Of a DNA stretch of 64,000 nt, positions 17,656 through 21,400 are shown in pieces; the first letter of the stretch is position 1; each line of letters begins with the position of its first letter. Where the stretch lies: assembly GCF_013122565.1 (NCBI RefSeq), contig NZ_CP053258.1, one strand, 5' to 3'. Both the position numbers and the translations under genes were made by a program. A model generated the notes under the pieces. It made no database searches, had not been told where the DNA came from, and saw only the letters and a list, made by a program, of their open reading frames with translations. The stretch is from Escherichia coli (lineage in GTDB: Bacteria; Pseudomonadota; Gammaproteobacteria; Enterobacterales; Enterobacteriaceae).

Positions 17656-19071
17656 CTACATATCCCGTGTGGTTTGTGGATTCACTGAGTTTTGTTTGTC
17701 AGATAATGCACAATCGTTATCCAGAATTTTTGCAGACATATTTCGTTCTACCAAGAGCCGGCAAATCTCTGCGTGCTTCTCCTCAGTGAAGGTGAAGAGA
17801 GACATAAAGGCTATTCGGATCAGTGAGCCTATTGCAGGTAGCAGACAAATCCCGAAGAACAGACCCGATAGCACGCTTTCTTTCTGGATTTGTTCTTGCG
17901 GCACGTAGTCAATCATCGTCAGGAATACACCTATGAGCCCGCCGCCAACTGCAACCGACATCTTGCCGGTAAAGGTTTGTCCGGAGAAGGTGATTGCCGC
18001 GCAGCGTTTGTGGGTGTGATACTCCGCGTACTCAATGGTGTCAGCAATCATTGACGAGGTGAGAATGTTGGTCATCATCACAAAAAGCGTACTTAGACCA
18101 AGTAGAATAAACAGTATTGTCACCTGTTGATATCCAACCACCCACATCACCAAGCGTACCGAGACGTCTAGTCCACAGAGGATCATAAACAGCTTCCGCT
18201 TCTGCATCCGGCGTGTCAGCATCGGCGAGATCAGGCATAACATTGCTGCTAAAATCCCCATAACACCAATAGCCATCTGCAGGCTGCCATCTCCCAGATT
18301 ATTGATAAAGAAGTAGATATAAAGCCCGCCTGCCACGTTGTGGAATACGCAGAAAAAGAACGACAGCAAAACTATAAATAGCGGCTTGTTTTGACGCAGG
18401 TTATAGAAGGTGTCGCGAATAGTTACCTTTTCCGGGCTTGGCGGCACGCGCTCTTTGATCTGTACAAAGCCGTTTAGCATCAGTGGCAGGCCTACTAGCA
18501 TCATTATCAGCGCAGCCATAAAGTAACCCTTATCGTCGCTGTACTGGGCGAAGAATGCCGCTAGTTTTGGGAAAAAGATATTGGCGCAGGCAATCCCGAC
18601 GTTTACCCCGAGCATCGCCGCAGTGACAACACGGACACGCTGAGCGGAGTCATTGGTCATCACCGATGACATCGACCAGAACGGGATATCGGAGATAGCA
18701 TATAGCGTCCCCCATAGAATGTAGGTTACCCCGGCATAGAGAATTTTTGTGGTCATGCTCGCATCGATTTTATAGAAAGAAAGCAGCGTGACACCTGTGA
18801 TCAACAGTGGAGCGATCAGTAAAAAGTGACGAAATTTACCGAACCGACTGTTAATAATATCCATAATGCTAGCAAAAAGAGGATCGTGAACTGCATCCCA
18901 TGCGCGGGCGATCAGAAAAATTGTGCTTGCCGCCAGCGCCGAGATCCCCAGCACGTCAGTGTAAAAATAGTTAATAAACGAACCCACTAAGCCAAAGCTA
19001 AAACACTGACCTACCCCATAACCAAAATAAGACCACAACTCACGAGACGGTATTTTCATTGTCGTTATCAT
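17656..19071 (-). CDS. Glycoside-pentoside-hexuronide (GPH) family sugar:cation symporter
   Basis: 471-aa hydrophobic ORF whose N-terminal region ([34 protein letters not shown]...) is typical of MelB/YicJ-type GPH transporters. Confidence 0.8.
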
Positions 19072-19121
19072 TGATATATACCTGCTTGATCACCCGGCGG
19101 CAGAGCACCGGGTCGATATTA

Positions 19122-20207
19122 TTAGTAGTGCACCTTCGGGGCGATCTTGCGTAACTGCAAAATCAGGTCGATTTCACGGCGTGAGAAAGGAAAACCATTC
19201 TCCTCAAACACGTCGTGGAACCAGAGACGACAGTAGTCCGTGGAATTTTTCATCACCACAGGCCAGGGTAACCACGTCTGGGTTTTGCCGCGTACCAGTC
19301 CCCACTGATATGGAGCAACTTTTGCCATGTACATTAGTGGAAGCTGTTCTTCAACAGTACTCCCCAAGTGTCGTGCAAGCCATTCGGTGCAAAACAGTGG
19401 GCGATCCAGTGCCTGTAGCTGCTGGATAATTGCCACCATACGGCTGGTGTGAGTGTATGCGTGGAAGCTCACCACGTCTGAAAGCGACAGCGCTGTCTGG
19501 TCAAGTGGATGCTGGAAGAATATCTCGTCTTCTTCCGGTGACAGATGCCATGCGCAGACAGTGAGCGGCTGAGTCGGATCTTCTTCACGTACCCATCGAA
19601 ACGCCAGGTTCATTAGCTCGTGGGCGCAACTTTCCAGCTTTGCATCATATTGAACCTCCTGCGTACCTGTCGCGAAAATGCCGCGGTTACCAGGTTCGTT
19701 ATATAGATCCCACAACAATACGCGCTGGTCTTCACGAAACTGACTAACAATATCGCGGATATAGAGTTCAATCTGCGGCCAAAAATCGCGATCGCAGACT
19801 TTATCACGTCCAGGACTTGCTGCCGCCTGGCTATTGTGTTTGCCCGGTACAGGAGATTTTTGCGGGCCGAGATAGGGTTCGTCACCGGAGAAGCCACAGT
19901 CATCCATCAGGGTCAACATGGTGCTAAACCCGTGACCGGCAGCAATCGCCAAAAAATGGTCAATGCGGGCTATCAGCCCGTCGCGGTCGTGCTCCCAGAC
20001 GATAAACGGCAGATTGATGCGAAGAGTGTTATAGCCCGCGGCCGCTGCCCAGCCTAGCTCACGCTCGATGGTTACCGCATCAAATGTTTCCTCTTGCCAG
20101 ATATCAGTCCAGTTCACCGCCGTCGACGGCAGATAGTTAAAACCGCACAGCCAGCCTTTTTGTTCATACCATGTTTGTGCCTGCTCTCTACTCCACTGCT
20201 CTTTCAT
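19122..20207 (-). CDS. Glycoside hydrolase, GH-A clan (TIM-barrel; possibly beta-mannanase/xylanase-like)
   Basis: 361-aa ORF with a WDLYNEPG motif, i.e. the NEP acid/base signature of clan GH-A enzymes. Co-oriented with and upstream of the GPH transporter. Exact GH family and substrate are unknown. Confidence 0.6.
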   Translation of the reverse strand: MKEQWSREQAQTWYEQKGWLCGFNYLPSTAVNWTDIWQEETFDAVTIERELGWAAAAGYNTLRINLPFIVWEHDRDGLIARIDHFLAIAAGHGFSTMLTLMDDCGFSGDEPYLGPQKSPVPGKHNSQAAASPGRDKVCDRDFWPQIELYIRDIVSQFREDQRVLLWDLYNEPGNRGIFATGTQEVQYDAKLESCAHELMNLAFRWVREEDPTQPLTVCAWHLSPEEDEIFFQHPLDQTALSLSDVVSFHAYTHTSRMVAIIQQLQALDRPLFCTEWLARHLGSTVEEQLPLMYMAKVAPYQWGLVRGKTQTWLPWPVVMKNSTDYCRLWFHDVFEENGFPFSRREIDLILQLRKIAPKVHY

Positions 20208-20233
20208 TACCAGTCCTCTAGATAATAATGTTT

Positions 20234-20251
20234 AGCTAATAAATATTAGCT
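20234..20251. promoter_or_regulatory. Inverted repeat AGCTAATA-AA-TATTAGCT in the divergent promoter between the hydrolase/transporter genes and the LacI-family gene; candidate operator
   Basis: Perfect 8-bp arms read directly from the sequence; its function is inference. Confidence 0.35.
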
Positions 20252-20392
20252 GAAAAGTAAATGCACAAATGATTCTGTTAATAAAAGAGACTCCCCTCAC
20301 AAAGCTCATGCATCGATGAATCAGAAACGTGAGCGATCGCCCGAAAGCGTGCGGTTAGGGTATGATGTGAAATCGCAAGAGGGGGAAAACGG

Positions 20393-21400
20393 ATGAAGCG
20401 AAAAACGAAAGTTACGATGAACGATATTGCTCGAGTGGCAGGGGTATCGCAGGCAACGGTATCACTGGTACTTAATCAGTCCCGCAACATCAAACTTAGT
20501 GACGACACGCGCCAGCGGGTTATTAACGTGGCCACCGAGCTCGGCTACGACCGCCTCCCCGCCATTCACGCCCCGCGCAACCAGGAGGAGATCGCCCTGC
20601 TGGTAAGCTCACTGCAAATCTTCGACCCGTTTATTGACGCCATTAGCCAGGCGCGAGAATCTGCGTGGCGCAACGAAACCTTACTCACTATCTACGACTA
20701 TGGTGATGACATCGAGTTGGCACTGAACATCATCCGTCAGTTGGAAACGCGTAACTGTATCGGGATTATTCTCGCTTCCCCTGTCACTACGCTGGTTGAC
20801 ATGAGTGCATTCCTGGACTTCACTCACATACCTCTGGTGCTTCTCAACCAGTGCGACCCCGGCTCGCCGCTTCTGCCATCGTTTATTCCAGACGACTACG
20901 CTAATGCTTTCCAGGTAACCAAACATCTCATCTCCTGCGGCGCAAAGCGTATCGCACACATCACCGGAGAGAGTTGGATGGAGGCCTCTCGACAGCGTTT
21001 GGCGGGCTATCAGGCAGCGCTGCAACAGGCTGGATTAGCCTGCGATGATAGCCTGGTGCGCCAAACCAACTGGCAATTCAGCGAGTCCTTCACTGCAACC
21101 ACTTCTCTGCTGGAGCTAACCGAGCGGCCGGACGCCATTTTCTGTGCCAGCGATTGGCTGGCGATAGGCTGTTATCAGGCTTTGGCTGTAAACGGTATTA
21201 GTATACCACAGGATATGCTGCTGGCGGGTTATGATGATCAGAAGATATCCGAACAACTCACTCCACCACTGACCAGTATCCAGCTACCCTATAGCGAACT
21301 GGGACGGCTGGCAGTGGAGTACCTTTGCAATCAGGAAGACGCTGCCACACATGTAACACTGGCAGGCAGGCTAAAAGTGCGGGCTTCGAGTCTTTTCTGA
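20393..21400 (+). CDS. LacI-family transcriptional regulator
   Basis: 335-aa ORF with an N-terminal HTH (VTMNDIARVAGVSQATVSLVLN) and a periplasmic-binding-protein-like effector domain. Divergent from the hydrolase/transporter pair. Confidence 0.88.
   Translation: MKRKTKVTMNDIARVAGVSQATVSLVLNQSRNIKLSDDTRQRVINVATELGYDRLPAIHAPRNQEEIALLVSSLQIFDPFIDAISQARESAWRNETLLTIYDYGDDIELALNIIRQLETRNCIGIILASPVTTLVDMSAFLDFTHIPLVLLNQCDPGSPLLPSFIPDDYANAFQVTKHLISCGAKRIAHITGESWMEASRQRLAGYQAALQQAGLACDDSLVRQTNWQFSESFTATTSLLELTERPDAIFCASDWLAIGCYQALAVNGISIPQDMLLAGYDDQKISEQLTPPLTSIQLPYSELGRLAVEYLCNQEDAATHVTLAGRLKVRASSLF

Follow-up and report, generated by a model that had tools for sequence, protein, structure and literature searches.

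Two kinds of described arrangement offer the closest comparison for the locus analyzed here. The lac operon of Escherichia coli joins a LacI-family repressor, and a palindromic operator at the promoter, to a cation-coupled carrier of the MFS type and a cytoplasmic, retaining glycosidase of clan GH-A; in melAB (a GH4 enzyme and MelB), uidAB (GH2 and UidB), yicJI (a GPH carrier and GH31) and yagGH (a GPH carrier and GH43), the gene for a symporter of the glycoside-pentoside-hexuronide (GPH) family lies beside that of a cytoplasmic glycosidase. A three-gene ‘cassette’ that shares all of these likenesses is found in a 64,000-nucleotide stretch of an E. coli chromosome (contig NZ_CP053258.1 of assembly GCF_013122565.1; the whole stretch is referred to below as the ‘window’, and all coordinates are positions within it). 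On a balance of evidence that tips modestly in favor of such a reading, the cassette appears to be a lac-like, inducible and negatively regulated catabolic unit that would import and cleave a galactose-containing glycoside. The genes and the control region between them are the following:

17656..19071, minus strand: GPH-family cation symporter of 471 amino acids (TIGR00792), the second gene of the operon
19122..20207, minus strand: predicted cytoplasmic clan GH-A (GH5-like) retaining glycosidase of 361 amino acids, with predicted acid/base E171 (in NEP) and nucleophile E275 (in TEW)
20208..20392, no strand: divergent control region of the hydrolase operon and the regulator gene, delimited from direct reading of the sequence and an alignment of eight enterobacterial intergenic regions
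20219-20238, no strand: operator-like palindrome 1, TAGATAATAATGTTTAGCTA, overlapping palindrome 2
20233-20252, no strand: operator-like palindrome 2, TAGCTAATAAATATTAGCTG, with perfect 8-nucleotide arms (AGCTAATA-aa-TATTAGCT) at 20234-20251
20393..21400, plus strand: LacI-family transcriptional regulator of 335 amino acids (N-terminal helix-turn-helix and periplasmic-binding-protein-like effector domain), the predicted repressor of the divergent operon

The cassette genes and their known counterparts

The three open reading frames are intact and have exactly the limits given in an original prediction made from the sequence alone. That they are real genes is borne out by their homologies: the transporter matches the GPH:cation symporter model TIGR00792 over residues 17-440 (308.1 bits, E 8.6e-92, against a curated cut-off of 231.35), the regulator matches 18 LacI-family models of NCBIfam (E down to 1e-47), many of them over its full length, and for the hydrolase 1,793 homologues are found at E<=1e-3. 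The hydrolase gene lies 50 base pairs (bp) upstream of the transporter gene on the same strand, and no terminator-like site was found between the two; the regulator gene diverges from this operon across an intergenic region of 185 bp. In the six complete E. coli genomes that carry identical genes, RefSeq names the products ‘MFS transporter’, ‘cellulase family glycosylhydrolase’ and ‘LacI family DNA-binding transcriptional regulator’.

The closest solved structure to the transporter is the melibiose permease MelB (E 2e-37). Orthology with MelB, UidB, YagG or YihO was nevertheless rejected, as the scores set against the respective equivalog cut-offs are 211/456, 210/528, 201/610 and 155/836 bits. 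The regulator is most similar to the RbsR, CytR and PRK09526 models (E 1e-47 to 6e-41) and, in the PDB, to the ribose repressor (E 6e-35) and LacI (E 3e-23); full-length matches extend to models and structures of RbsR, CytR, PurR, GalR, CcpA and LacI, and the recorded Pfam domains of its orthologues are LacI and Peripla_BP. Identification with any named member of the LacI family was likewise rejected, since the best match reaches 163 bits against a cut-off of 382 (RbsR-type) and all 18 matches fall below their equivalog cut-offs.

When the cassette is set against the lac operon, its product of cleavage is probably galactose too, and the differences lie in the individual parts. The hydrolase is a single-domain, GH5-like barrel of 361 amino acids, as opposed to the 1,023-residue GH2 enzyme LacZ; the carrier belongs to the GPH family (the MelB/LacS type) and not to that of LacY; the regulator gene is divergent, whereas that of lac is upstream and co-directional; and the candidate operator is unrelated to lacO and has no central CG. 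Compared with melAB, uidAB and yagGH, the transporter scores a mere 200-211 bits against the MelB, UidB and YagG cut-offs of 456-610, and is hence an orthologue of none of these, and the partner enzyme comes from a family other than those found in melAB, uidAB, yicJI and yagGH, and one that is uncharacterized. By these sequence comparisons the cassette is not an orthologue of the lac, mel or uid systems, because its carrier and regulator fail the equivalog cut-offs, its operator differs, and its enzyme is a small single-domain barrel.

The hydrolase and its family

The N-terminus of the hydrolase (MKEQWSREQAQTWYEQKGW...) is without a hydrophobic signal segment, and the protein begins at the first helix of its domain, in keeping with the earlier description of a cytoplasmic-looking enzyme. 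Many of its distant homologues carry a signal peptide ahead of the RWSxEKAxxWY start that they share with it, and signal or lipoprotein sequences and extra domains occur among them. The AlphaFold model of the E. coli protein is a confident (beta/alpha)8 barrel (predicted local distance difference test score, pLDDT, of 91). In 25 homologues (52-84% identical) the motifs WDLYNEP (N170-E171-P172) and CTEW (T274-E275-W276) are invariant, as are R63, H249 and Y251, and these residues match the conserved set of retaining clan GH-A/GH5 enzymes; in 50 distant multidomain relatives, conservation of the columns that correspond to NEP and TEW is complete or at least 90%. Judged from its modeled fold and these motifs, the hydrolase belongs to clan GH-A, as had been proposed, and is a GH5-like glycosidase with a conserved catalytic glutamate pair; the positions of the two residues lead to the prediction that E171 is the acid/base and E275 the nucleophile.

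A more exact placement is a different matter. The Pfam model PF00150 (Cellulase/GH5) matches weakly and over residues 55-283 only (i-E 6.3e-7, 29.6 bits), and its precomputed match is missing in about half of the homologues; GH5 chains in the PDB score at E >= 0.046, even with a profile of 25 sequences; and no NCBIfam model matches. Sequence searches of the PDB, with the single protein and with the profile, gave local GH10 and GH5 matches only, around the NEP strand, and Foldseek found no close solved structure (TM-scores of about 0.5-0.64 at <=14% identity). The GH5 exo-beta-mannosidases (Op5Man5, PDB 7bob; GH5_18, PDB 7lr8 and 9y4v) and the GH42 beta-galactosidases (PDB 4ucf) differ from the hydrolase in sequence (13-17% identity, with no significant match), and the GH42 enzymes are also much longer. 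Database names for the family are all generic (‘cellulase family glycosylhydrolase’, ‘1,4-beta-xylanase’, ‘GH5 domain-containing’), and a Foldseek search of AFDB50 returned unreviewed generic names only. The name ‘1,4-beta-xylanase’ was rejected, because the GH10 match behind it is weak and local (PF00331 at i-E 0.034 over 77 residues; GH10 chains in the PDB at E 0.12 with the single sequence and 9e-4 with the profile, over about 95 residues).

A match to a well-characterized enzyme was looked for, and no characterized relative was found in the PDB, NCBIfam, UniProt names or the searched literature, so that the earlier statement that the hydrolase cannot be placed in a characterized family still stands. 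Literature searches gave no match for its RefSeq accession and none for ‘GH5 beta-galactosidase’ phrases, and the family is not described in the Fervidibacter glycoside hydrolase papers, the Helbert 2019 CAZyme screen (PMC6442616), the Cheng 2017 metagenomic beta-galactosidase paper or the GH5 subfamily paper (PMC3526467). A possible home, likened here by description only, is CAZy family GH147, a Bacteroides beta-1,4-galactosidase/galactanase family that also belongs to clan GH-A (PMC6442616), and for which no solved structure was found in the searches; a search aimed at it and seeded with a Bacteroidales member of the hydrolase family (6,715 proteins at E<=1e-10) had no protein of Bacteroides ovatus or B. 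cellulosilyticus in its best 120 matches, which is uninformative.

The family is both large and widespread. In a library clustered at 50% identity, 3,901 representatives match it at E<=1e-3, and 623 of these do so at E<=1e-30; its members span many phyla, with occurrences in Proteobacteria, Planctomycetota, Chloroflexota, Bacteroidota and haloarchaea. Among 50 long representatives, the fused domains comprise GH43 (eight cases), aldose 1-epimerase (three), alpha-L-fucosidase (three), an arabinofuranosidase C-terminal domain (two) and a galactose-binding F5/8 type C domain (two), and one of the fucosidase-fused members adjoins a gene for L-fucose isomerase. The aldose 1-epimerase is C-terminal in secreted, Bacteroidota-type members (P0153, P0213 and A2); other members carry GH43, a GH29 fucosidase or tandem catalytic domains (two of them in P0121).

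Gene neighborhoods, control region and probable substrate

Indications of the substrate come from the surroundings of family members in other organisms. The context set consisted of 85 loci that encode such members, with neighbors clustered within 7 kilobases (kb); the genome scan behind it used the best 80 of about 600 loci, and the counts are lower bounds, since the open reading frame caller yields spurious antisense frames in GC-rich loci (clusters 7, 11 and 13 are of this kind). A LacI-family gene is present in 52/85 loci, a GPH carrier gene in 22/85 (every one gammaproteobacterial) and a CUT1 ABC transporter in about 18/85 (Rhodobacteraceae, Oceanospirillaceae, Chloroflexi and one haloarchaeon). 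The full unit of regulator, hydrolase and GPH carrier is conserved in Enterobacter, Vibrio, Photobacterium, Aeromonas, Yersinia similis and Succinivibrionaceae; in Rhodobacteraceae, Chloroflexi and the haloarchaeon the CUT1 transporter takes the place of the GPH carrier, with LacI and hydrolase retained. Because the type of transporter is swapped between lineages while the other two genes stay, the three can be regarded as one uptake-and-cleavage module, much as the original prediction held. The substrate-binding proteins of the Rhodobacteraceae-type cassettes matched only generic CUT1 binding proteins in the PDB, with no clue to the substrate, and three further distant single-domain representatives lie on contigs of less than 2.5 kb with uninformative contexts.

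In 15 of the 85 loci the hydrolase gene has genes of galactose or arabinose catabolism, their functions confirmed with NCBIfam, at a distance of up to 7 kb, and only galactose-type functions recur as catabolic neighbors across the set; by our own estimate, the chance expectation for one unique gene in such a 7-kb window is about 0.3-0.4% of genomes. These neighbors are distributed as follows:

L008, L027, L028 and L031: galE/T/K/M, directly upstream in Photobacterium and Vibrio (galM in V. crassostreae)
L019: galT-galK, in Aeromonas
L072: galK, in a metagenome-assembled genome (MAG) of Pirellulales
L048 and L049: galM
L075, L078, L079 and L083: galactonate dehydratase DgoD (NF010624, E 7e-203), in the haloarchaeon, two Chloroflexi/Anaerolineae MAGs and an unclassified MAG (L078)
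L039, L049, L056 and L061: IlvD-family sugar-acid dehydratase of alpha- and gammaproteobacteria, best matched as L-arabinonate dehydratase

The members that adjoin gal genes are close gammaproteobacterial orthologues of the E. coli hydrolase (52-60% identity, with the same operator). In Vibrio aestuarianus, the cassette is followed by genes for a GH36 alpha-galactosidase, a permease and a porin, and in the haloarchaeon a gene for a GH2-like enzyme precedes the hydrolase gene. The recurrence of gal and dgoD genes as neighbors in unrelated lineages, combined with the aldose 1-epimerase fusions, points to the hydrolase as most likely a galactose-releasing exo-enzyme of the beta-galactosidase type. 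A retaining beta-galactosidase frees beta-D-galactose, which needs a mutarotase before it can be used by GalK in the Leloir pathway, and the link to aldose 1-epimerase is meaningful for this reason. Side activities as an alpha-L-arabinopyranosidase or beta-D-fucosidase are possible, because these sugars share the C2-C4 configuration of galactose.

The same comparison of loci also brought out a candidate operator. The palindrome pair at 20219-20252 lies 12-45 bp upstream of the start codon of the hydrolase gene. In about 22 of 38 gammaproteobacterial loci (in Enterobacter, Pluralibacter, Kluyvera, Rahnella, Yersinia similis, Aeromonas, Vibrio, Photobacterium and Anaerobiospirillum), its consensus, TAGCTAA-N4-6-TTAGCTA, recurs at a distance of 30-90 bp ahead of the hydrolase gene, while being almost absent elsewhere in those 20-kb loci. 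It has been kept across families although the remaining intergenic DNA has diverged. The window holds four matches against 0.66 expected from shuffled sequences, and two of the four lie inside the 185-bp region. In the eight aligned enterobacterial control regions, conservation is seen in four places. About 85 bp ahead of the start codon of the hydrolase gene stands an invariant TGTGA, which resembles half of a CRP site; the other three are a TTGC block, the palindrome itself and a ribosome-binding site (AGAGGA ahead of the hydrolase start). On these grounds the palindrome is likely to be the operator. Another perfect match, at 26956-26975 (TAGCTAATGATTTTTAGCTA), was rejected as a member of the regulon; it lies in core E. 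coli DNA present in 5,147 of 5,426 genomes, some 300 bp ahead of the first of the yde fimbrial genes, and has probably arisen by chance, the DNA being rich in AT.

Taken together, these elements suggest a mode of action of the following kind. The LacI-family protein would bind the palindromes, sitting over the promoter and start region of the hydrolase-transporter operon, and would repress by this occupancy until released by the substrate or a derivative of it, possibly with activation by CRP. The symporter would then bring in a small glycoside uncleaved, coupled to H+ or Na+, and the cytoplasmic enzyme would cleave it exo-wise through E171 and E275. The sugar released would most likely be D-galactose, which could enter the core Leloir pathway of E. 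coli; candidates for the aglycone or second sugar are glucose, galactose and glycerol (as in galacto-oligosaccharides and the galactosylglycerol of plant and algal material). The operator, and the assignment of the substrate to galactosides rather than to mannosides or xylosides, are suggested here in addition to what the original prediction contained.

Several observations weigh against this galactoside reading. No gal gene adjoins the cassette in E. coli, and 70 of the 85 loci are without an informative catabolic neighbor; the Vibrionaceae loci are not independent of one another, which leaves perhaps five to seven independent associations with gal or dgoD. The palindrome does not have the central CG typical of LacI-family operators, and the intergenic region yielded no sigma-70 promoter that agrees with the consensus at 9/12 positions or more, as is commonly the case for activator-dependent catabolic promoters. 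In Rhodobacteraceae, L-arabinose may be an alternative product, because the IlvD-family neighbor scores best as L-arabinonate dehydratase. The nearest structures to the hydrolase are those of mannosidases, a distant Bacteroidales member adjoins a GH125 alpha-mannosidase, and a Victivallis ‘GH5_dist’ protein (which may or may not belong to the family) has p-nitrophenyl-beta-mannosidase activity (PMC6442616). That the hydrolase is itself an exo-beta-mannosidase, in a cassette for beta-mannosides such as mannobiose or the Man-beta-1,4-GlcNAc of N-glycans, nonetheless seems quite unlikely, as the context of the family points to galactose and not to mannose. E. coli phosphorylates free cytoplasmic galactose (by GalK) and glucose (by Glk) efficiently, and mannose not, which favors a galactoside or glucoside for a cytoplasmic enzyme. 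A furanosidase that acts on beta-Galf or alpha-L-Araf, in the manner of GH5_13, whose members have such activities (PMC6442616), would fit both the galactose and the L-arabinonate-type neighbors, and would account for the GH43 and alpha-L-arabinofuranosidase C-terminal domains found fused to family members; it is improbable here, however, in that the fusion or adjacency of aldose 1-epimerase better suits a pyranose product, and the top 60 structural neighbors of the hydrolase include no GH51 enzyme or other furanosidase.

It is also conceivable, if unlikely, that the substrate is some other glycoside (a beta-glucoside, beta-xyloside, glucuronide, or aryl or alkyl glycoside), and that the gal neighbors found elsewhere reflect other specificities within a polyspecific family. 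GH5-like families are indeed polyspecific (PMC3526467), GPH carriers take many glycosides, and that of the cassette reaches no specific equivalog cut-off; GH1 genes lie nearby in the Rahnella and Endozoicomonas loci, and databases call the hydrolase a ‘1,4-beta-xylanase’. Against this, the xylanase name goes back to the local GH10 match (E 0.03-0.1), xyl, bgl and uxa catabolic genes do not recur beside family members, and it is the close gammaproteobacterial orthologues, which share the operator, that adjoin gal genes. As to whether the cassette might be a silent passenger of its island in E. coli, neither expressed nor functional, one could point to an IS3 remnant 24 bp beyond the transporter stop codon, to the mosaic nature of the island, to the presence of the cassette in just 6 of 5,426 genomes and to the lack of a strong sigma-70 consensus; yet three full-length reading frames with intact catalytic and DNA-binding regions, an identity of 99.7-99.8% in six genomes from different hosts, and the retention of ribosome-binding site, operator and conserved upstream blocks make this highly improbable.

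A wider and distinctly more tentative proposal is that the hydrolase stands, as founder or member, for a clan GH-A family of small beta-galactosidases whose function has not been described, which in gammaproteobacteria would form a second galactoside system, independent of lac and equipped with a LacI-type regulator and a conserved TAGCTAA-N4-6-TTAGCTA operator of its own, and whose substrate may be derived from plants or algae (galactosylglycerol or galactobiose) and not be lactose. If true, this would give a function to a large family (the 623 representative clusters at E<=1e-30) now mislabeled as ‘cellulase’ or ‘1,4-beta-xylanase’, and a handful of E. coli lineages would have gained an additional route for galactosides from bacteria like Enterobacter; the conserved candidate operator would offer a handle for finding the inducer. 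Otherwise the cassette is a routine accessory catabolic unit, which changes no concept and touches no long-standing question.

The accessory island and the distribution of the cassette

The window runs from the lsr genes through an ECSE_1600-type autotransporter and hipBA into an accessory island, and then into the yde fimbrial and acid-resistance genes. The island is a mosaic, composed in order of an AIDA/TibA-like autotransporter with its heptosyltransferase, an IS3 remnant, the sugar cassette and tcuRABC:

12148-15735, minus strand: AIDA-I/TibA-like, repeat-rich autotransporter of 1,195 amino acids
15750-16910, minus strand: autotransporter O-heptosyltransferase (TIGR04414, Aah/TibC equivalog, 602 bits against a cut-off of 200)
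17303..17632, minus strand: remnant of an IS3-family transposase (NF033516, E 1.8e-15, partial; in RefSeq, ‘IS3 family transposase, incomplete’)
21509-26412, plus strand: tcuR-tcuA-tcuB-tcuC, a complete tricarballylate utilization cluster (TcuA equivalog, 786 bits)

The IS3 remnant abuts the 3' end of the transporter gene and forms the left boundary of the cassette, of which it is not a functional part. Among 5,426 complete E. coli genomes, the six that carry the cassette match the window from about 17340 rightwards, with tcuR adjoining every time. The closest relatives of the hydrolase are found in Enterobacter, Silvania and Pluralibacter (81-88% protein identity). This ancestry, the rarity of the cassette in E. 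coli and its setting in an island identify it, as far as sequence comparison goes, as horizontally acquired cargo. An AFDB entry assigned to the pea aphid Acyrthosiphon pisum (A0A8R2FDL3) is 83% identical to the E. coli hydrolase, and most likely represents bacterial contamination or symbiont DNA.

The tcuRABC cluster directly to the right of the cassette occurs in 36 of the 5,426 genomes, and in 27 of 38 places it is borne on a plasmid. The island ends near 26,670-26,700, with core E. coli DNA from there on, and the junction is marked by the remnant of an AraC-type helix-turn-helix gene (26605-26733), a pseudogene in the RefSeq annotation of relatives. On the left, no complete genome of the collection covers window positions 1-17300 to at least 80% in one place. 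The autotransporter of 1,195 amino acids lies directly downstream of the O-heptosyltransferase gene, and in the six cassette-sharing genomes the pair has shrunk to a 966-bp beta-barrel fragment that abuts the IS3 remnant. Left of the island, at 4457-11688 on the plus strand, are the ECSE_1600-family autotransporter (1,806 amino acids) and the hipBA toxin-antitoxin pair, which are core or near-core E. coli genes here.

Variations on the cassette were encountered in several of the other loci. Aeromonas sanarellii (L019) has two tandem LacI-hydrolase units at 9944-15600 of its locus, each with an operator palindrome of its own, and it is the first unit that adjoins galT-galK. The LacI/hydrolase/GPH unit of Y. 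similis (L029) is intact and has a perfect operator; in Y. pestis NCTC5923 (L057) the hydrolase and LacI genes are kept, with no GPH gene following and no operator match, which suggests decay of the cassette in that species. A second type of paralogue, 54-57% identical and without a GPH gene, occurs in Citrobacter, Pseudocitrobacter, Superficieibacter, Enterobacter and Kluyvera (L002, L020, L038, L067 and L069), at a fixed chromosomal site between genes for a glutathione S-transferase and a glucose/sorbosone dehydrogenase (yliI-like). A gene for an ABC substrate-binding protein lies downstream of it in four of these five loci (L020, L038, L067 and L069), and an operator-like palindrome is retained in L038 and L069, as well as in L063 of Kluyvera.

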